48,763 bases of DNA from the NCBI GenBank assembly GCA_017480995.1, contig JAFUQJ010000051.1, forward strand, positions 1 through 48,763. The letters are read 5' to 3'. Below are positions 2,343-26,099 of this stretch, one piece after another (the stretch's first letter is position 1; every line of letters begins with the position of its first letter). The translations under genes were made by a program, and so were the position numbers. The notes under the pieces are model-generated. The model saw only the letters and a program-made list of their open reading frames with translations, did no database searches and was not told where the DNA came from. The stretch comes from Alphaproteobacteria bacterium. Lineage in GTDB: Bacteria; Pseudomonadota; Alphaproteobacteria; RF32; CAG-239.

Positions 2343-3653
2343 ATGAAGAAAAAAATCACAAAAACATTGGTCGAGAGCGCGGCGACTCCGCAAAATTCAA
2401 AACTTTTAATCTGGGATGAGACAATTTCCGGATTCCATGTTGTTATACGTCCGAGCGGGCGCAAGAGTTTCTATGCTGTATATCGACTGCGTAATCACAA
2501 ACAACAACGTTTGAAGCTTGGCGATTTTCCGGCCATGACGGTTGAGGAGGCGCGCGAAAAATGCAAGGCACTGATGAACCAGGCCTTTGACGGTGTGGAT
2601 CCTTTGGCTGTTATTCGCGAACGCGCAAGGCTTGAAGAGCCGGATCCGGCCAAAAACGGCACGATGCGCGACCTGTATGCCAAATATATGGCCGAGCATG
2701 CGATTTTTAAGAAACCGGCGAGCCGCAAGAACGACGTTATTTACTGGGAAAGGCATATTTTACCGAGAATTGGCGACAAACGCGTGCGCGAGGTCACCCG
2801 CGGTGACATTTCGGCCATCCATAAGGGAATCGGCGCCGAGCTGAACCGCAAGGGCGAACTGATGAAGACGACAGCCAACCGCGTGCTTGAGGTTTTGAAA
2901 AAGGCTTTTTCCCTGGCCGAGGAATGGGAATGGCGGCCGGAGGGCTCCAATCCCGGGGCGCGGATTAAAAAGTTCAAGGAACAGGCCCGCAACCGATATC
3001 TGACACTTCAGGAAGCGGCGGCTCTTGACAAAGTTCTGGTGAAATATCTCGATGCCGGATATCGCGAGCGGCAGGTTGCGCGGCTGGTTCTGATTTTGCT
3101 TTTGGTCGGCGGTCGCAAGCAAGAGATAAGGAATGCCCGCTGGGAATGGGTTAATCTTGAGCGCGGCGTTTTATCCCTGCCGGACAGCAAGTCAAACGAG
3201 CCGCAGGATATCCAGCTGCCGGACAAAGTTTTGGATATTTTGGCGGATATTCGCGAAGATCAGCGGCGGAATAATCGGGAAAGCGACTATATTTTTGACG
3301 GGCACGTTCGCGGCCAGCCGCTTAAAGACGAGGGCAAGCATTGGGACAACATCCGCGCCGAGGCCGGTTTGAAAGATTTCCGCATGCACGATCTGCGCCA
3401 CAGTTTTGCCTCGTACATGGCCATGGCGACAGGATCCGAGCTGATGATCCAGCAAAGCCTGCGGCACGCTGATGCCAAAACGTCGAAACGCTACACCCAT
3501 ATGTTTAATGAGCCTTTGCGTTCGGCGGTCAATCAGACGGCCGGAAAAATTATCGAGGCCATGCGCGGCGATAAAATCGTTGATTTTGAAACGGCCAAGC
3601 AAGCACACCGCAAGGCTAACGACCGCGGTCAGGTGTCCGAACAGACTGCGTGA
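2343..3653 (+). CDS. int: tyrosine integrase (P4-type, tRNA-targeting)
   Basis: N-terminal arm-binding-like region (ISGFHVVIRPSGRKSFYAVYR). C-terminal HDLRHSFAS ... RYTH catalytic motifs. Confidence 0.9.
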   Translation: MKKKITKTLVESAATPQNSKLLIWDETISGFHVVIRPSGRKSFYAVYRLRNHKQQRLKLGDFPAMTVEEAREKCKALMNQAFDGVDPLAVIRERARLEEPDPAKNGTMRDLYAKYMAEHAIFKKPASRKNDVIYWERHILPRIGDKRVREVTRGDISAIHKGIGAELNRKGELMKTTANRVLEVLKKAFSLAEEWEWRPEGSNPGARIKKFKEQARNRYLTLQEAAALDKVLVKYLDAGYRERQVARLVLILLLVGGRKQEIRNARWEWVNLERGVLSLPDSKSNEPQDIQLPDKVLDILADIREDQRRNNRESDYIFDGHVRGQPLKDEGKHWDNIRAEAGLKDFRMHDLRHSFASYMAMATGSELMIQQSLRHADAKTSKRYTHMFNEPLRSAVNQTAGKIIEAMRGDKIVDFETAKQAHRKANDRGQVSEQTA

Positions 3654-4092
3654 GGCTGTTCAGAAACTTGACAACTCCCTCTTTGGCCATAAGGTCGGCT
3701 AAGGCGTTATTGATGGCTTTAAATTGATAGTGACCGGTGTGAGCCTTGACTTTTTCGATTTTTAAGCCCTGCGGGGCGATTTGGTTGATACGGTATGCCC
3801 ATTTGCGGCATTCGAGCCGGTTTTTCTGCTGTTTTGGCGTGAGGGGGCGGTCTTTGATATTGTCGGAAATGTAGGCAATGGCGTTTTGGCTGTCGGTGTA
3901 GAGCGTATGCGGCCCGGGATATTGCTTGATGAGTTCAAGAGCATAATATATGGCGTAGAGCTCGCCGATGTTGTTGTTTTCGGCCTTAATCCATTTTGAA
4001 AAGATGCGGCGCTGCTGTCCGCAGATGATGACACAACCGATTCCGGCAACCCCGTGTTTTTCGTTGAAGCTGGAATCGGTGTATATTATCAT
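3616..4092 (-). CDS. RNase H (type 1) domain protein
   Basis: MIIYTDSS...GIG...GELYAIYYAL...LYTDSQ...KAHTGH resembles the RNase HI DEDD pattern. ATG 4092 overlaps the spanin stop (ATGA). Confidence 0.75.
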   Translation of the reverse strand: MIIYTDSSFNEKHGVAGIGCVIICGQQRRIFSKWIKAENNNIGELYAIYYALELIKQYPGPHTLYTDSQNAIAYISDNIKDRPLTPKQQKNRLECRKWAYRINQIAPQGLKIEKVKAHTGHYQFKAINNALADLMAKEGVVKFLNSLTQSVRTPDRGR

Positions 4093-4280
4093 TTTTCGCA
4101 CCTGCAGGCTTTGATGACGAGTTCCTGACAGTCAAATCCGTTTTCAAGGTCAAGAACGGTTTGTCCGCGCTCACAGGTGTTGACCGGGCAGCAGTTGACA
4201 GGCACATATTTAATGTTGGCCGCGCAGCTGGCGACGGCAAGCACTGAGGTCAACAGAATACAGAGCTTTACAATCCGCAT
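4089..4280 (-). CDS. o-spanin-like lipoprotein (Rz1-like)
   Basis: Start at ATG 4280 after GGGAGG. MRIVKLCILLTSVLAVASC lipobox. Start is embedded in the i-spanin ORF in another frame. Confidence 0.65.
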   Translation of the reverse strand: MRIVKLCILLTSVLAVASCAANIKYVPVNCCPVNTCERGQTVLDLENGFDCQELVIKACRCEK

Positions 4281-5700: not shown

Positions 5701-6075
5701 CTACTCCGTCAATTCTTCAACTTCTTCAATCGTAAAACCGAGACGAAAGATTTCGGCGTTCGGATCTTCGACAAGGGTAAAAATTGACCATTTTTCCGGC
5801 TCGCCATCTTTGGCCGTGTTGATCAGTCTTGAGTTTTCGCCGTTGTCGAGCTCGGCTCTGGCGGCGGCATTGGCGGCAATAGTCTCGTTTTCTTCGGCCT
5901 CGGTGGCGCCGTCCGGTACGGGAACCGGCTCAAAAACCTCGCCGCTGTCTTTCCAGATAAAGCGGTCGGCGGCCAGAGAGCGCAGGCGTTCTTTTGCCTG
6001 GTCCGTGTATTCGGGGTCGGCCAAAAGGTTCAAATAGTCTTGTTTGGTGCAGAAAATTTTAGGAAATCCTCTCAT
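5701..6075 (-). CDS. hypothetical acidic protein downstream of the DGR RT
   Basis: 124-aa ORF, tightly packed in the RT operon. No motif recognised. Confidence 0.55.
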   Translation of the reverse strand: MRGFPKIFCTKQDYLNLLADPEYTDQAKERLRSLAADRFIWKDSGEVFEPVPVPDGATEAEENETIAANAAARAELDNGENSRLINTAKDGEPEKWSIFTLVEDPNAEIFRLGFTIEEVEELTE

Positions 6076-6089
6076 TTTTTTGTGTCCTT

Positions 6090-6440
6090 TCAGATGATTT
6101 TGAGCGCGCGGTCATCTTTGACAATCGTGCCGACACGCGGCAGTTTGTCTTTGAAAACTTCGAGCGTTTTGGTTATGTTTTTAGACTGCGTGAAAAATAT
6201 ATGCTTTTCGCCGTCTACAATGATTTGCACCTTGGTCACGGATTCGCCGAAACGCTTGTATTGACTGGGTGCAACGCTAAAATCCACGAAGACAATCTTT
6301 TTGTTCAAAAGCTTGTCAACGGGGATTTTCGAGCCGACAAAGCCGCTTTGCTCATTTGATTTTCTGAGCATTTCCGGATCATCGGCAAAAGCCGGATAAT
6401 TGTCATAATCTGGCGAGGATGTCATTTGCTGTTCTTGCAT
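6090..6440 (-). CDS. hypothetical protein overlapping the RT 3' end
   Basis: 116-aa ORF overlapping the RT by up to 38 nt; start uncertain. No motif recognised and not Avd-like by eye. Confidence 0.5.
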   Translation of the reverse strand: MQEQQMTSSPDYDNYPAFADDPEMLRKSNEQSGFVGSKIPVDKLLNKKIVFVDFSVAPSQYKRFGESVTKVQIIVDGEKHIFFTQSKNITKTLEVFKDKLPRVGTIVKDDRALKII

Positions 6441-7446
6441 TTTTTGAGGCCTCTCTTAACCGGTCAAGATCAAGTTTTATTCGCAGATTGTATGTTTTTG
6501 CCCATTTCATCCAGCCGTCATAACTGGCAATGACCGAACGAAACTGCTCAGCCGTTATTTTGTGCCGGTGCAGATTGTAGACGGCTTTTTTGATGCGTTT
6601 GCGCGCTCTTTTGGCTGTTGACTTGCGCAGCAGTATGTATTCCGGAAAATGGCGGTAACCCAGAAAATCAACACCGCGGCTGACGGGAAAAAGGTCGCAT
6701 TTGCTCATGCGGAGCCGGAGCCTGTCGGTTAAAAACTGCCTGATTTTGGCGGCGGCATCGTTCAAAACTTTTTTGTCGTTGTGAAAAAGGCAAAAATCGT
6801 CGCAATAGCGCAGGTAGCATTTGATTTTGAGCTGATGCCGGACAAACTGGTCAAGCTCATTCAAATACAGATTGCCAAACCATTGGCTGGTGAAGTTACC
6901 GATCGGCGTGTTGGTTTCGCCGGGAAAGCTGTCAATAATGTCATCAATCAGCCACAGGACGTCTTTATCTTTAATTTTGCGGCGGACGATGCTTTTTAAA
7001 ACATCGTGGTTGATGGACGGATAAAATTTTGAAATATCGCATTTCAGGCAATATCTGTTGCCGCGGATATATTCCATTGTCTTCAGGCTGCCCTTGTGCA
7101 TGCCTTTGTTGTCGCGGCAGGCGTAGGATTCCGCAATAAACAGATTATCCCAAATCGGGATTAAAACGTTCATTACCGCGTGCTGGACAATACGATCGGG
7201 GTTAAACGGCAAAATATAAATAGTCCGGCGTTTGGGTTCAAAAACGGTTTTGGTGCTGTAATGCGCCGTTGTGAAGGTCTTGTTGACCAGGCTTTGACGT
7301 ATTTTTTCAAGATTGTTTTCCAAATCGCGGTTAAAGAGACGCACATTGCGCTTTTTGCCCTTGCCGAGCTTTGCCTGCTCATAGGACAAGCGGATGTTTT
7401 CTTTGGTGATGACACTCGGCCACAAATTTCCGTATCTTTTAACCAT
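6403..7446 (-). CDS. DGR reverse transcriptase
   Basis: RT domain with IGNFTSQ (DGR hallmark [ILV]GxxxSQ) and YCDD catalytic motif. Lies beside the TR/VR pair. Confidence 0.9.
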   Translation of the reverse strand: MVKRYGNLWPSVITKENIRLSYEQAKLGKGKKRNVRLFNRDLENNLEKIRQSLVNKTFTTAHYSTKTVFEPKRRTIYILPFNPDRIVQHAVMNVLIPIWDNLFIAESYACRDNKGMHKGSLKTMEYIRGNRYCLKCDISKFYPSINHDVLKSIVRRKIKDKDVLWLIDDIIDSFPGETNTPIGNFTSQWFGNLYLNELDQFVRHQLKIKCYLRYCDDFCLFHNDKKVLNDAAAKIRQFLTDRLRLRMSKCDLFPVSRGVDFLGYRHFPEYILLRKSTAKRARKRIKKAVYNLHRHKITAEQFRSVIASYDGWMKWAKTYNLRIKLDLDRLREASKNARTANDILARL

Positions 7447-7526
7447 TTCAATCCTTATTTTGCAGAAGCCGGGGTTTCGTTTTGGGCTACTAGCCCGGCA
7501 TTGCCTCCGTTTTTGTGTTTTGCCGA

Positions 7527-7554
7527 CTGCGGTTCCCGTTGTCCGGGCGCGCGG
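7527..7554 (+). repeat. inverted partial VR/TR-like segment (fold-back partner of TR)
   Basis: ctgcggttcccgttgtc is complementary to 7664-7680 (16 of 17). gcgcgcgg is complementary to 7612-7619. Confidence 0.7.
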
Positions 7555-7606
7555 TGCGACATGGATAAATATCTCAGCCGGAGTTATCCAAGAGGATTAA
7601 ACCGTA

Positions 7607-7719
7607 TCCGCCCGCGCGCGCCATTATTGACATTCGTATTCGAAAGCGAATTATTCGCATTGCGACAACGGGAACTGCAGTTCGAGGAATTGTCCCAGTT
7701 GCCTCCTGCCAGAAGCACC
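7607..7719 (-). repeat. DGR template repeat (TR), 113 bp
   Basis: Gapless alignment to VR1 at offset 222. Adenine-rich AAY codons in the VR frame. Non-coding, between target gene and RT. Confidence 0.9.
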
Positions 7720-7802
7720 CGGTAATGTACTGCTCGTGATAAATATTTACCCAAAACCTTCATATTTTTTTGCCTTTTCTTTTTAATTAAAAAGAATTTG
7801 CC

Positions 7803-9290
7803 CTAGTTTGGCATCCTCTTTGGCAGGCTCCGCCCGCGCGCGCCATTAGCGACATACGCAAGCGAAAGCGAATGATCCGCAATGCGACAACGGGAACCGC
7901 AGTCCGAGGAACTGGCCCAGCGGCCCCCCGCCAGAAGCACCATACAGGAGCCGTAGAACGAACCTTCGTCGCCGTTCTGGCTGTTCCAGTTCGCACCGCC
8001 GGCGGCGTGAGTTTCGGCCAAATGTTGCCATTGCAGGCCGCACATTTCCTCACAACCTATGTTTGATACCATTCTGCGGCCGGCTGTGTCGCTGTGGCCT
8101 CCGGTTGTGTCCGGGCTCGGCTGTTTGGAGCCGCTGACAACGGTTTTTTGGTTGCTGCCTTTGGACGCCGAATAGAATTCTTCATCATGCAATAACGTTT
8201 TTTTGACCGAGCGCTGGTCATCCACAAAATCAAAGTGCATTCTGGTGTTGGCTCGGGTGCCGCCGTAGACCGATTTTGTGTTGGCGCCGGTGCCGGACTG
8301 ATTATAGATGTCAACCCAGACATCATTAACGTCGTCATAAACCATGCCTTCCGGCTCGGATATCGGCCGGTGGTTTAAGCACCACACCGAGGCGGGCAGA
8401 ATGTCGCCGGCAACGTAACCGGACAGCGGATGACCCGAGATTGTGCCGACATTGCTGCATTCGGTGTGAAATCCGCCGATTTTGCGCGAGTTGTCCGCCG
8501 AATATCCGCCCGGATAGGTAGAGTTGAGCGAAACAACAAATTTTGTGCCATTGTCGCCTTCCGGTACCAAAAAGATGTGATAGTCCTTGCCGGCCGAGAA
8601 TGACGCGCCGGAATCCATCAGCGACTGGCAGTTGATAACTTCATCCGAGGTTTGCTGGCGCCAGCGTGACACGCCGTCGACTTCCAGACGGATGATACTC
8701 CCCGCCTTGATGGTGATGTTGCGCTTGCCGTTGACGACCAAAAACGGGTTGACCTGGAAGAAGGTGTCATAATTGGCCACGCCCGAGGTTTCGTAGGAGG
8801 TTGAGATGAACTCCCAGTAATTCCCTGCGGCGTTCCAGGAAAATTCCACTATGGCGCCGGTTAAGAGGTCGCCGGAGCTTAAATCTGCGGTGCCGGCATA
8901 TTTTTTTGCCGGTTTGGCACCGGTGCCGTAGGCGTTGATGGTTGCTGAGCCGCTGTTTGGGTGAACGACCTTGAAACGGATGCGCTGTCCGTCGGTTAAG
9001 GCGCTGTATTGTACCTGCCCGGTTGACGACAGCACATAAACGTTGGCCGCGGATGACGAGGCCTCTGCGCAAAAGTCGGAAATGGTGGCGGCCTCAAACA
9101 AAGCGGTGCCGAGCTGATTGTTGGCCTCTGCCGGCGTCATGCCCAGTTTGGTGATGGCCGCGACGATTTCACGTTGCGGATTTTCAAGAGCTCCGGCCGG
9201 AATGATTGAACCTTCCTGTCCGTTGGCAGGGTCCGCATTGACGTATATAGCGTCTGGATCTTCGGAATTTAAAGGCGGTGTGTATTTCAT
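7803..9290 (-). CDS. tail fibre / receptor-binding protein, DGR target
   Basis: Tail-fibre position after the baseplate genes. C-terminus CMVLLAGGRW..DCGSRCR..GARG looks like a CLec/FGE-type fold and contains VR1. Confidence 0.85.
   Translation of the reverse strand: MKYTPPLNSEDPDAIYVNADPANGQEGSIIPAGALENPQREIVAAITKLGMTPAEANNQLGTALFEAATISDFCAEASSSAANVYVLSSTGQVQYSALTDGQRIRFKVVHPNSGSATINAYGTGAKPAKKYAGTADLSSGDLLTGAIVEFSWNAAGNYWEFISTSYETSGVANYDTFFQVNPFLVVNGKRNITIKAGSIIRLEVDGVSRWRQQTSDEVINCQSLMDSGASFSAGKDYHIFLVPEGDNGTKFVVSLNSTYPGGYSADNSRKIGGFHTECSNVGTISGHPLSGYVAGDILPASVWCLNHRPISEPEGMVYDDVNDVWVDIYNQSGTGANTKSVYGGTRANTRMHFDFVDDQRSVKKTLLHDEEFYSASKGSNQKTVVSGSKQPSPDTTGGHSDTAGRRMVSNIGCEEMCGLQWQHLAETHAAGGANWNSQNGDEGSFYGSCMVLLAGGRWASSSDCGSRCRIADHSLSLAYVANGARGRSLPKRMPN
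7829..7941 (-). repeat. DGR variable repeat VR1
   Basis: 17 mismatches to TR, all at TR adenines (manual alignment). GC-rich IMH-like 3' end ggcgcgcgcgggcgg. Confidence 0.9.
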
Positions 9291-25146: not shown

Positions 25147-25677
25147 TTATTTTTCTTTATTCTTATCTTTAACGGCACGAACTTCGGCACTTCCAAAGGC
25201 GTCATAACCCGTCAGGCCGTTGATAAATTGCGGCAGGTCAATGAGTTCGCCGTTGTCGTCGTGCAGATCTTTTATTTTGTCGCTGACGAACGTGCGCTCA
25301 GCCTTGCGCAACTGGCAATAGCCTTGAAAATAAAAGCGGGTTTTGCTGTCTTTGAATATTTTGTGCAAAGCGATGCGGCGTTTGGTCTTCTTTCCGGAGG
25401 CGTCGGTGTAGGAAAAGTTTATCGGAACGCCTTTGTCGGATTGCCACACCGGCTCGCCAAAGCCCGGAAGATCGAAATCATCGTCCGTGTCGCGTTTTTG
25501 TTCAATGACGTGGTAAAAACCACCGCCGATGATGGCATAGAGCAACATAATAACCGGGATTGTCCAGCCGGCGCTGATGATGTCATACCCGTATAAAACC
25601 GCCCCGCCGATGATGGCAAGAAATGCCGCCGCCGACAACACCTGTTTTTTGGTTTCTTCAAATTCTTTTTCAGTCAT
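25147..25677 (-). CDS. membrane-anchored WYL-domain protein
   Basis: Start ATG 25677 after AAAGGA. Two TM helices, then RRIALHKIF..TRFYFQGYCQLRKAERTFVSDKI, which matches the WYL-domain pattern. Confidence 0.65.
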   Translation of the reverse strand: MTEKEFEETKKQVLSAAAFLAIIGGAVLYGYDIISAGWTIPVIMLLYAIIGGGFYHVIEQKRDTDDDFDLPGFGEPVWQSDKGVPINFSYTDASGKKTKRRIALHKIFKDSKTRFYFQGYCQLRKAERTFVSDKIKDLHDDNGELIDLPQFINGLTGYDAFGSAEVRAVKDKNKEK

Positions 25678-25708
25678 AACCCTGTCCTTTCCGTCAAAAT
25701 TATACTTT

Positions 25709-25737
25709 ATCGTAGCATCAAAGTATAAAATAGTCAA
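25709..25737 (-). promoter_or_regulatory. sigma70-like promoter for the WYL gene
   Basis: Minus strand TTGACT, 17-nt spacer, TACGAT, about 30 nt upstream of ATG 25677. Confidence 0.45.
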
Positions 25738-25786
25738 CAAAAAGTATAAAAAAGTCATTGTTTTTGACTTTTTCAAATTGTGCAAA

Positions 25787-25891
25787 CTTCTGGCAGGGGG
25801 CGCCTGGGACAGATCCTCGTACTGCGGTTCCCGCAGTCGCTTTGCGTGGGGTTCGCTTTCGGACACGTCTGTCTATACTGGCGCGCGCGGG
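25787..25891 (+). repeat. orphan VR-like cassette VR3
   Basis: Gapless match to sense TR positions 5-109. 17 adenine-site and 5 other differences (manual). Hairpin at 25912-25931 follows. Confidence 0.8.
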
Positions 25892-25944
25892 TTGATCCGT
25901 GCCAAAGGGATCTTTTGCGAACACGCAAAAGAGGCGGCCTGTAT

Positions 25945-26054
25945 GGTGCTTCTGGCGGGAGGCTCCTGGGACATTTCCTCGGATTGCGGTTCCCGCTGTC
26001 GTACTGCGGACAATTCGCTTTCGGTTGCGTATGGCAATTATGGCGCGCGCGGGC
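25945..26054 (+). repeat. orphan VR-like cassette VR4
   Basis: Gapless match to sense TR positions 1-110. 13 adenine-site and 5 other differences (manual). Hairpin at 26071-26096 follows. Confidence 0.8.
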
Positions 26055-26099
26055 ATATCCGCCAAAATAACTTTTTCTTCCCTTGGAAGTAAAAAGGCA

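Follow-up and report, generated by a model that had tools for sequence, protein, structure and literature searches.

A prophage of uncultured, partly human-gut Alphaproteobacteria, which combines a Mu-like tail with a lambda-like head, carries a DGR and, elsewhere in the same genome, three additional VR-like copies that do not belong to any gene. Taken as a whole, the 48,763 nucleotides analyzed here (hereafter the window) are very probably best explained by an active DGR that lacks Avd and has the order target-VR-TR-spacer-RT, accompanied by a set of orphan cassettes. The core of this element is an ordinary phage DGR of the BPP-1 kind, and its Avd-less layout is already known; what is unusual is the adenine-specific rewriting found in three gene-less VR copies 17 kb away.

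Core components of the DGR

The protein-coding genes and repeats of the core element are the following:

7803..9290, minus strand: target gene, an Mtd-like tail-fibre or receptor-binding protein of 495 aa with a predicted C-terminal CLec/FGE-type fold
7829..7941, minus strand: VR1, target codons ~450-487, with a GC-rich, IMH-like 3' element at 7830-7844
7607..7719, minus strand: TR, non-coding and intergenic, with 26 coding-strand adenines and a GC-rich 3' element at 7608-7622
6403..7446, minus strand: DGR RT gene, 347 aa, with motifs IGNFTSQ and YCDD and a Pfam RVT_1 domain

A repeat search recovered TR and VR1 as a direct repeat of 113 nt (7607-7719 and 7829-7941) that aligns without gaps at 85% identity and a start-to-start distance of 222, the same constant offset given by the first-pass annotation, and the homology between the two copies ends on both sides of these 113 nt. 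A base-by-base count agrees with the 17 mismatches reported there. Each is a T on the plus strand and thus a TR adenine on the coding (minus) strand, changed to G in 9 cases, to C in 5 and to T in 3; the 26 adenine positions account for all 17 (hypergeometric P 4.9e-14), with none elsewhere. When TR is read in the VR frame it gives VLLAGGNWDNSSNCSSRCRNANNSLSNTNVNNGARGR, in which 10 AAY codons contain 20 of the 26 adenines, so the earlier statement that these adenines sit mainly in AAY codons also stands. This restriction of mismatches to TR adenines (17/17), the location of VR1 in the 3' end of a target gene and the presence of a non-coding TR beside the RT, from which it is separated by 160 nt on the upstream side, are all properties by which DGRs are recognized, and the adenine-only mismatches with a preponderance of AAY codons are shared with BPP-1.

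The target was previously proposed to be a tail fibre that ends in VR1 and has a C-terminus similar to that of BPP-1 Mtd, and each of these points was supported. The protein matches Pfam mtd_2nd (E 5e-25), phrog_11262 (tail protein) and the Mtd structures 1yu0-1yu4 (E 6e-12 across residues 188-486, VR included). Its AF2 model, for which pLDDT is >90 over residues 180-495, retrieves Mtd in Foldseek (E ~1e-23, TM 0.70-0.73), followed by TaqVP and FGE-fold proteins, which places the modelled C-terminus among the C-type lectin or FGE-like folds of DGR targets. By sequence and predicted fold, the 495-aa target is therefore an Mtd homolog with a C-terminal VR, as in BPP-1, from which it differs by an extra N-terminal part of ~185 residues. 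The label ‘tail fibre’ is reasonable because the neighbours of this gene are Mu-like baseplate genes.

The RT contains the IGNFTSQ and YCDD motifs on which its first assignment to the DGR family was based (an IGxxxSQ-type motif 4 and YxDD), and its best match in the PDB is BPP-1 bRT (8ub7_A, E 1.3e-50), to which residues 1-322 align as a full-length homolog. D138/D215/D216 of the 8ub7_A chain correspond to the bRT active site (10.1101/2023.10.23.563531). The RT also matches phrog_1423 (E 6e-119). It is exceedingly improbable that this protein is instead the RT of a group II intron or retron, with the repeat unrelated to it. Its top NCBIfam match is indeed group_II_RT_mat (E 9e-36), followed by Drt3a and a retron RT, but the group II match is far under its cutoff (124 vs 300 bits), as is the retron match (55 vs 235), and group II and retron-type RTs in the PDB are matched at E ~1e-21, 30 orders of magnitude behind bRT. 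In addition, an adenine-specific TR/VR pair lies directly upstream of the RT, and an Rfam search of the window found no group II intron or retron RNA, tRNAs being the sole matches. The sub-cutoff NCBIfam scores, the bRT match and the Rfam result thus contradict a grouping with retron or group II RTs, the outcome that the first-pass annotation had named as evidence against its proposal.

Spacer RNA, candidate homing elements and neighbouring genes

The region between TR and RT, together with the sequence 3' of VR1, contains a second set of features:

7447..7606, minus strand: spacer (Sp) of the DGR RNA, from TR to RT, recognized by fold and covariation
within 7573-7581, minus strand: invariant GGCUG motif of the spacer
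7545-7554, minus strand: spacer complement of the TR GC run
7527-7543, minus strand: spacer complement of the TR interior
7505-7523, minus strand: single-stranded spacer motif GCAAAACACAAAAACGGAG
7468-7499, minus strand: distal spacer stem-loop with a UAGUAG loop
7777..7796, minus strand: hairpin 3' of VR1 and the target stop, a perfect palindrome (TTCTTTTTAATTAAAAAGAA) with an 8-bp stem and a 4-nt AATT loop

TR and spacer together have a folding z of -4.0, and RNAalifold analysis of 26 related spacers gives 19 pairs, 12 of which carry compensatory changes, and 13 of the 19 are altered in both partners; the covariation score of 0.643 compares with 0.243 for shuffled alignments (0/500 as high) and 0.08-0.18 when the partners are slid. 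The predicted, covariation-supported structure joins the GC run of TR to the invariant GGCUG and contains two more helices. A structured TR-RT spacer RNA that includes a duplex between the TR 3' end and the spacer is also a feature of BPP-1 (10.1101/2023.10.23.563531), so the predicted pairing is of the BPP-1 type in this respect and would supply a template:primer duplex. Unlike in BPP-1, a segment inside TR, rather than one upstream of it, is predicted to pair with the spacer, leaving the TR site A43 unpaired. At their 3' ends TR and VR1 have GGCGCGCGCGGGCGG in common and diverge right after it, which, with the hairpin at 7777-7796, reproduces at the sequence level the BPP-1 arrangement of a GC-rich element at the 3' ends of TR and VR, subsequent divergence and a 4-nt-loop hairpin downstream of VR. 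These are candidate counterparts of the cis elements of DGR homing, namely an IMH in VR, a differing IMH* in TR and a hairpin or cruciform downstream. This hairpin, whose AATT-loop form is also present in two 70%-identical relatives (L006 and L007), is a candidate homing cis-element and/or terminator.

On the BPP-1 paradigm, TR and the structured spacer would be transcribed as one RNA, the RT would copy TR to cDNA with misincorporation opposite adenines, and this cDNA would replace VR1, guided by the common GC-rich 3' element and the downstream hairpin. The outcome would be the randomisation of 12 residues on the C-type-lectin tip of the Mtd-like tail fibre, and the same cDNA might be written directly into the three gene-less cassettes.

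BPP-1 has the order mtd-VR, avd, TR, brt, whereas the element described here is without avd: none of the window ORFs of at least 60 aa has a Pfam match to this PF05635-like basic four-helix protein, and the place beside TR where a BPP-1-type element has avd is a VR-TR gap of just 109 nt. Avd is required in the sole DGR that has been studied biochemically (10.1101/2023.10.23.563531), while 26-29% of surveyed DGRs are without it, and ‘Architecture A’, a target-TR-RT order without an accessory gene that has the same layout as the present element, accounts for 29% of 372 DGRs (Wu et al., 2018; PMC5758913). Since Avd is undetected, details of the mechanism here may differ from those of BPP-1. Two small genes lie downstream of the RT:

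6090..6440, minus strand: orf116, overlapping the RT stop by 38 nt; phrog_19665
5701..6075, minus strand: orf124, acidic (pI 4.3), a frequent neighbour downstream of the RT in the clade

By tblastn, 21/80 related loci have orf116 immediately 3' of their RT, at identities down to 32%, so that it is a conserved partner in part of this RT clade. Its AF2 model (pLDDT 70) is beta-rich and without a significant PDB match, and it was rejected as an Avd candidate because it is not a helical bundle. The orf124 product has tblastn matches in 40/80 related loci and no match to a Pfam or PHROG family.

Variation across related genomes

A comparison of 12 related genomes suggests that the DGR is active. 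TR is identical in 11/12 of them, and VR1 is present as 11 distinct alleles, one with an indel, in which 23/25 A sites and 0/84 others are variable. In the most direct case, two genomes with 97% flank identity and the same TR differ at 16 positions of VR1, all of which are TR-adenine sites. At the protein level, 12/12 variable residues among 15 cluster proteins lie in TR-adenine codons, and pN/pS is 9.7 for the VR codons, 0.10 for target codons 1-449 and 0.044 for the RT, in which IGNFTSQ and YCDD are intact in 12/12 genomes. The earlier proposal that polymorphism should be confined to TR-adenine positions was thus supported by related genomes, which were used in place of reads. Activity is indicated by the combination of an invariant TR, VR1 alleles that vary at TR adenines only, and a pN/pS of 9.7 in VR versus 0.04 in the RT, a pattern of ongoing diversification beside a constant TR that is characteristic of DGRs.

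If the element were instead an inactive relic, the TR/VR differences would be old and those between genomes would reflect ordinary divergence or assembly noise. The lack of an Avd in the window would fit such a relic, and the comparison draws on assembled genomes. This explanation is nevertheless very hard to sustain, since it is contradicted by the pattern of VR1 alleles (11 in 12 genomes, with no variable non-A site, and 16 adenine-site differences between near-identical phages), by TR identity and by the conservation of the RT and its catalytic motifs. The spacer RNA is conserved and covarying, and the layout recurs in independent assemblies from different studies, both of which also argue against a relic.

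Orphan VR-like cassettes

Besides VR1, the one VR covered by the first-pass annotation, an adenine-tolerant scan revealed three further VR-like copies, which set this element apart from that of BPP-1. They occupy the interval from the tRNA cluster to the terminase gene, on the strand opposite to VR1 and 16.6-18 kb from it:

24547..24659, plus strand: cassette position 1, directly after the tRNA cluster and a terminator hairpin (24489-24518); GC run 24644-24655; downstream hairpin 24674-24698
25783..25895, plus strand: cassette position 2a, 5'-truncated; downstream hairpin 25911-25932
25945..26057, plus strand: cassette position 2b, 43 nt from the converging terminase stop; downstream hairpin 26071-26096

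These cassettes are 5'-truncated duplicates, ~150 nt long, of the target 3' end (VR, GC run and hairpin). They have the same flanks in 15 independent assemblies, their GC run is invariant and every copy has a downstream hairpin. Only the window and L008 have position 2a as a copy of its own; most relatives have one hybrid copy there. The cassettes lie outside genes, where a canonical VR is inside a target gene: an ORF search found no long ORF over them, most assemblies carry no gene call there, and frameshifts disrupt the 5' end of the position-2 copy. The cassettes are thus unlikely to function as protein.

The variation of the cassettes follows the adenines of TR. At position 1, 84/87 non-A positions are identical to TR and 18/21 mismatches are at TR adenines; among 15 genomes there are 12 distinct alleles, in which 24/25 A sites but 13/84 non-A sites vary (Fisher p 9e-14), with pi values of 0.525 for A sites, 0.047 for the rest of the core and 0.031 for the flank downstream. 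Position 2b, compared in 12 genomes, is invariant at A sites in its 5' part (sites 0-45, pi 0.000), and in its 3' part (45-109) pi is 0.267 at A sites, 0.043 at others and 0.016-0.027 in the flanks (Fisher p 3e-5). Some alleles differ from TR solely at adenines (15/15 differences in L016 and 17/17 in L003, the latter over sites 0-108), and in L009 non-A mismatches have been erased in blocks next to the cassette 3' end. Because several cassette alleles are common to several genomes, their turnover appears to be slower than that of VR1.

Origin of the cassette variation

We lean toward the view that the cassettes are orphan homing sites that receive the same cDNA directly, and that repeated rewriting from TR prevents their decay; the 3'-polar variation, the conserved GC run and the hairpin fit homing into the cassettes. 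It is possible, if rather less probable, that they are not homing targets at all and that their adenine-site variation is second-hand, passed on by gene conversion with VR1 or another cassette as the donor. The sequences show that gene conversion among these repeats does occur: in L013, positions 1 and 2 share an identical 3' block (12 A sites plus a non-A marker), cassette 1 of the window and that of L001 have otherwise identical cores but 3' junctions of the VR1 and the cassette-2 type, respectively, and the TR of L020 has a VR-like 5' end. In addition, all cassette alleles carry G at TR site A43, and so does every VR1, where the alleles are under selection. Against a second-hand origin, four genomes allow the cassettes to be set beside their resident VR1, and in these the two do not resemble each other; A-site haplotype sharing between VR1 and cassettes is at the VR1-VR1 background (mean longest run 2.7-3.6 vs 3.3). 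Furthermore, at the synonymous site 15 every sampled VR1 has G, against A or T in 5/7 distinct position-1 alleles, and the 3'-polar pattern, GC run and hairpin are consistent with homing.

Variable surface proteins can also be changed by silent-cassette conversion, as in Neisseria pilS/pilE and Anaplasma msp2, or by invertible fibre cassettes, as with Mu Gin, P1 Cin and p15B Min. The present copies resemble such cassettes in being truncated, promoter-less versions of the variable 3' part of a fibre gene that are inverted relative to the expressed one. They could accordingly be a functional store of receptor-binding variants that is recombined into the fibre gene as a second tier of variation, a proposal that we regard as unlikely. 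In its favour, the cassettes are 5'-truncated from the same in-frame start as VR1, inverted with respect to it and conserved in 15 genomes, and a 3.7-kb scaffold, L028, runs from the fibre gene, via its VR, into the flank of cassette 2 and the converging terminase gene, as a product of recombination between VR1 and a cassette would. L028 is short, however, and could be an assembly chimera over a shared 26-nt sequence (GGCGCGCGCGGGCGGAGCCTGCCAAA). Apart from this ambiguous junction contig, no flow from cassette to VR1 of the pilS/pilE kind was detected in 12 VR1 alleles, as cassette-specific non-A markers (sites 51-53, 57 and 66) occur in 0/12 VR1 sequences. A domain search of the window found no resolvase or invertase of the Gin/Cin/Min kind that would make these invertible cassettes, the sole recombinase being a tyrosine integrase (2343-3653), and a reciprocal exchange between VR1 and a cassette would flip 17-18 kb of DNA and break up the late operon. 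The cassettes contain frameshifts and no longer encode a scaffold cysteine (codon lost at site 53 or 51-52), cassettes are missing from a ~73%-identical phage (L031) in which the gap is laid out alike, and, unlike in silent-cassette systems, the cassette variation is itself specific to TR adenines. There is likewise only a small chance that the cassettes are both DGR homing targets and a recombinable store of tips, which would combine hypermutation with cassette exchange.

Relation to multi-target DGRs and implications

Multi-target DGRs include that of Treponema denticola, with seven remote targets, and multi-VR phage DGRs, and targets that lie apart from the DGR yet inside one prophage with it (<50 kb) have been described as well (PMC5758913). 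That survey counts non-adjacent target genes; the non-adjacent VRs described here are not in genes, and their diversification is seen across genomes. With one TR for several distant VR copies, this element is similar to multi-target DGRs. To our knowledge, each VR of the known multi-target DGRs ends a full-length CLec or Ig-type target gene, whereas the extra VRs here are short, truncated fragments in an intergenic gap.

If the cassettes are written directly, a ~150-nt unit (VR homology, GC-rich element and hairpin) would be sufficient for homing in nature, and homing would be independent of coding context, of strand and of distance to the RT (17 kb). The covarying spacer RNA and the conserved RT-orf116-orf124 order provide leads on how Avd-less DGRs function. 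The phage is frequent in public metagenomes, those of the gut included (211 blocks of the assembly collection list its gpW protein), so read-level tests are feasible. As they are untranslated, directly written cassettes would preserve what a DGR produces by mutation before any selection on the protein, a record that is unobtainable from real targets and that makes the A43 exception directly testable. An A43 site that is always G is unexpected under unselected random mutagenesis.

The prophage and its retroelement

The window comprises a prophage plus some flanking host DNA. Nitroreductase and cold-shock genes of the host lie at its left end, where a tRNA-Met gene, the tyrosine integrase gene that adjoins it and the host-like genes to their left probably mark the attachment site and the left end of the prophage. 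A GH108 lysin gene precedes the DGR, the tail module contains Mu-like baseplate genes (Gp48, Baseplate_J, GP46, Gp45, Gp44/P and DNA_circ_N) followed by tape measure, sheath and tube genes, a lambda-like head module (gpD, protease, portal, gpW and gpA terminase) comes after these, and replication and methylase genes occupy the remainder. The features that enter the analysis are as follows.

1954-2030: tRNA-Met, left end
2343-3653: tyrosine integrase, left end
3616-4101 (-): RNase H gene (Pfam RNase_H, phrog_531), between the integrase and lysis genes
5701-6440 (-): orf116 and orf124
6403-7446 (-): DGR reverse transcriptase (RT), 347 aa
7447-7606 (-): spacer between TR and RT
7607-7719 (-): template repeat (TR)
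7803-9290 (-): target tail-fibre gene, 495 aa
7829-7941 (-): variable repeat (VR1), within the target gene
24339-24427 (+): tRNA-like gene, 89 nt
24547-24659 (+): VR-like cassette, position 1
24810-25758 (-): 63-71-aa ORF and small membrane protein gene
25783-25895 (+): VR-like cassette, position 2a
25945-26057 (+): VR-like cassette, position 2b, terminase-proximal

A copy of this prophage that is 94-97% identical is present in an uncultured Alphaproteobacteria MAG (CALXUM010000002.1), further copies derive from human-gut and other metagenomes, and the gpW protein of the phage is listed in 211 blocks of the assembly collection. The annotated phage collection held no close relative, the top match being 65% identical over 446 nt of an RT, and an Rfam search of the window returned tRNAs only. 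Across 19496-20635 the longest ORF is on the + strand and is probably spurious, as a 336-aa major capsid gene (Phage_cap_E) occupies the opposite strand there in related contigs. The RNase H gene is kept in 10/10 related DGR loci, and a role in processing the RNA-cDNA hybrid of the DGR is conceivable.

Template, reverse transcriptase and target

A repeat search found a single 113-nt direct repeat (7607-7719 and 7829-7941; spacing 222, 85% identity) whose homology stops sharply at both ends, so the TR and VR1 coordinates and offset proposed in the first-pass annotation stand, as do its mismatch count and the bias towards AAY codons that it described. Counted base by base, TR and VR1 differ at 17 positions, and 17/17 are a T on the + strand of TR and hence an A on its coding (minus) strand, the changes being A>G in 9 cases, A>C in 5 and A>T in 3; TR has 26 coding-strand adenines, and the probability of all 17 mismatches landing on them is 4.9e-14. 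When TR is read in the frame of the 495-aa ORF at 7803-9290(-), it encodes VLLAGGNWDNSSNCSSRCRNANNSLSNTNVNNGARGR, with 20 of the 26 adenines placed in ten AAY codons.

Pfam detects only RVT_1 in the RT, and the top match in NCBIfam, which has no DGR model, is a group II RT at 124 bits, far below its cutoff of 300. The top match among solved structures is the 328-aa chain 8ub7_A (E 1.3e-50, residues 1-322), which is better by 30 orders of magnitude than the group II and retron-type RT structures (~1e-21), so the DGR-type assignment made earlier from the motifs IGNFTSQ and YCDD is upheld over a grouping with either of those classes. Residues D138, D215 and D216 of this chain coincide with the active-site residues named for bRT in a cryo-EM study of the Bordetella phage DGR (10.1101/2023.10.23.563531), which identifies 8ub7_A as bRT. 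Both motifs are present in the RT of 12/12 genomes, among which its pN/pS of 0.044 indicates strong purifying selection, and the wider RT clade comprises 180 viral contigs with phage RTs at 54-81% identity.

The target protein was expected to end in a CLec/FGE-like domain resembling that of Mtd, and both sequence and structure searches agree. It matches Pfam mtd_2nd (E 5e-25) and the PHROG 'tail protein' family phrog_11262 (E 2e-53), and its residues 188-486, which include the VR, align to residues 71-373 of the BPP-1 Mtd structures 1yu0-1yu4 (E 6e-12). An AlphaFold model built from 48 homologs is confident over residues 180-495 and matches Mtd best (E ~1e-23, TM 0.70-0.73), with TaqVP, a DGR variable protein, and proteins of the formylglycine-generating-enzyme fold as the next matches. 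The target family numbers more than 1,600 proteins, some of which are called 'phage major tropism determinant' by their sources.

The core element is therefore a BPP-1-like, Mtd-targeting phage DGR with a known Avd-less layout. In contrast to BPP-1, this DGR is without Avd: a Pfam search of all window ORFs of at least 60 aa, as concatenated pseudo-proteins, found no PF05635 (Avd), HRDC or invertase, and the gap between VR1 and TR is only 109 nt. Such a layout is not new, since Wu et al. (PMC5758913) report that 29% of 372 DGRs have a TR-RT architecture free of accessory genes, and judge some DGRs functional without Avd.

Variation of VR1 across genomes

Related genomes serve as a natural experiment on the activity of this element. 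The MAG relative has a TR identical to that of the window (113/113) and a VR1 that differs at 16 positions, 16/16 of them TR-adenine sites. Across 12 genomes TR is identical in 11, VR1 takes 11 different sequences, and the population check proposed in the first-pass annotation comes out as predicted, with 23/25 adenine sites and 0/84 other sites of VR1 variable (Fisher p 1e-21) when one exceptional allele, that of locus L027 with a 3-nt indel and one non-adenine change, is counted apart. Within a 98%-identity cluster of 15 target proteins there are 13 different VR peptides, all variable residues (12/12) fall in codons that contain a TR adenine, and the scaffold residues W, SS, CGSRCR, SLS, V and GARG are fixed. 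The pN/pS of the target gene is 9.7 in VR codons vs 0.10 in the remainder. As judged from these sequences, the pattern of variation in VR1, TR and RT is the signature to be expected if the DGR works and new specificities are selected for.

The sole variant TR among the 12 genomes is that of the related locus L020 (2220-2332), in which A sites 12, 15 and 19 are G, G and T, as in its own VR1, and this suggests that the 5' end arose by VR-to-TR gene conversion. In two short contigs from different samples (L029 and L030, protein P0128), VR1 continues straight into the TR 3' flank and RT, reflecting either a 222-nt VR-TR deletion or a repeat collapse; the deletion, if real, would remove the separate template.

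Variable repeat copies outside genes

A scan that ignored TR-adenine positions found three more VR copies, all on the + strand, outside any gene and inverted relative to VR1. These cassettes (24547-24659, 25783-25895 and 25945-26057) match TR at 84, 76 and 80 of 87 non-adenine positions, respectively, and 18/21, 17/28 and 13/20 of their mismatches to TR are at adenines. They have in common ~10 nt of VR1-specific flank on each side (CCTGYATG upstream, GCCTGCCAAA downstream), so they descend from the 3' end of the target gene and not from TR. The GC run is kept in every cassette, with a hairpin 13-15 nt downstream. No long ORF covers the cassettes, gene callers called none there in most assemblies, and the terminase-proximal cassette has frameshifting changes at its 5' end in relatives.

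The cassettes lie in a 2.3-kb gap between gpW and the terminase gene, together with three tRNA genes that have a promoter-like site and a hairpin with three compensatory changes between genomes; this hairpin and those of the cassettes were identified by folding and between-genome comparison and are not listed by a consensus terminator scan. The 89-nt tRNA-like gene at 24339-24427 (+) was assigned no anticodon by ARAGORN and scores 45 bits against Rfam tRNA; it differs strongly between the window and the related locus L001, with compensatory acceptor-stem changes and an indel in the variable region, and its equivalent in L031, a phage ~73% identical, is called tRNA-Ala(ggc), 90 nt. Between the cassettes, the opposite strand carries an ORF of 63-71 aa and the gene of a small membrane protein that weakly matches WYL. 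In the related locus L016 these two genes are missing, and its single cassette is flanked as in position 1 on the left and as in position 2 on the right, an arrangement which implies that the segment between cassettes is deleted or inserted with the cassettes serving as direct repeats. L031 has the same gap layout with the cassettes absent, no cassettes stand beside the terminase gene in 80 loci of more distant phages, and 60 related DGR loci contain no VR beyond the one expected within 3 kb of the RT.

Diversification of the cassettes

Comparison with one relative gave the cassettes the appearance of frozen relics, a reading that 15 genomes rule out. The position-1 cassette has 12 distinct alleles among them, and its per-site diversity in a MAFFT alignment is 0.525 at adenine sites vs 0.047 at other core sites and 0.031 in the downstream flank (variable sites: adenine 24/25, other 13/84; p 9e-14). 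The terminase-proximal cassette has zero adenine-site variation in its 5' 45 nt, and in its 3' 64 nt diversity is 0.267 at adenine vs 0.043 at other sites, with flanks at 0.016-0.027 (p 3e-5). Some alleles differ from TR at adenines only (L016, 15/15; L003, 17/17 over sites 0-108), and in the L009 cassette non-adenine mismatches are erased in the 3' two-thirds. The changes are adenine-specific and polar from the GC-rich 3' end, and other sites are reset to TR; this combination is what mutagenic homing would produce.

Direct DGR homing into the cassettes is the route we lean towards. That their variation was instead acquired second-hand, through gene conversion from VR1, appears rather unlikely, even though conversion-like exchange has left traces: a block of 12 adenine sites and a non-adenine marker common to both cassettes in L013, a cassette 3' junction that alternates among strains between VR1-like and cassette-like forms, the VR-like 5' end of the L020 TR, and the hybrid flanks of the single L016 cassette. 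Against such an origin, cassettes are unlike the VR1 of their own genome, VR1 and cassettes share adenine-site haplotypes only to the background extent seen between VR1 alleles, and synonymous site 15, invariably G in VR1, is A or T in 5/7 distinct position-1 alleles.

The converse proposal, that cassettes are donors to the fibre gene, is not supported, as no VR1 has a cassette-specific marker, the window has no invertase, and the ~73%-identical phage has the gap without cassettes. One scaffold could be read in its favour: in L028 (ERZ16268179 scaffold_27543; 1-2584 and 2455-3686) the fibre gene is joined via the VR to the cassette-2 3' flank and a converging terminase gene, which represents either the junction of an ~18-kb inversion or, this scaffold being short, an assembly chimera across 26 shared bases.

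DGRs that serve several targets are already known, as are non-adjacent targets within prophages (PMC5758913). Two large DGR surveys define VR as part of a target coding sequence, and the passages searched in them do not describe gene-less VR fragments undergoing diversification; our claim of novelty for VR copies that lie outside genes and are diversified at adenine sites is limited to a comparison with those passages.

A structured spacer and downstream genes

The 160-nt spacer between TR and RT is predicted from sequence comparison to be a structured RNA that is conserved. The fold of TR plus spacer has z = -4.0, and RNAalifold predicts 19 pairs across 26 spacers of the RT clade, 12 with compensatory changes. 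Counted separately, 92% of cells are paired vs 71.5% in shuffled alignments, and the covariation score is 0.643 vs 0.243 in shuffles (0/500 reach 0.643) and 0.08-0.18 with slid partners. One predicted element is a short duplex that joins the GC-rich TR 3' end to an invariant GGCUG motif and is comparable to the template:primer duplex in BPP-1. The others are a variable hairpin, a single-stranded stretch that is conserved (GCAAAACAC-AAAACGGAG), and a stem of 11 bp whose UAGUAG loop is invariant. TR-internal 7664-7680 is also predicted to pair with spacer 7527-7543 in the window and in the two relatives with the closest RTs, with one compensatory change among the three (GTTCCCGTT/AACGGGAAC vs GTTCCCGCT/AGCGGGAAC).

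Directly 3' of RT, orf116 and orf124 are found in 21/80 and 40/80 related viral loci, respectively, and orf116 overlaps the RT stop by 38 nt. They may serve this Avd-less clade as accessory proteins, or be no more than tail-module genes. The small protein orf116, considered as a possible substitute for Avd, has only 15 close homologs; its AF2 model is beta-rich, of moderate confidence (pLDDT 70) and without a significant PDB match.

An adenine always replaced by guanine

In every VR1, every cassette allele and the VRs of 70%-identical relatives, whose TR keeps A, site A43 (window 7676, codon AGT) is G. The adenine is unpaired in the TR-internal:spacer helix in 3/3 cases. A spacer C opposite A43 was considered as the template for this G and rejected, as two loci without that C (L111 and L112) have G in their VRs. 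Selection for glycine in CGSRC explains G43 in VR1 but does not explain it in untranslated cassettes that are otherwise rewritten along their whole length; possible causes are a non-random reading of A43, its modification in the RNA, or transfer of sequence from selected VR1 alleles to the cassettes.
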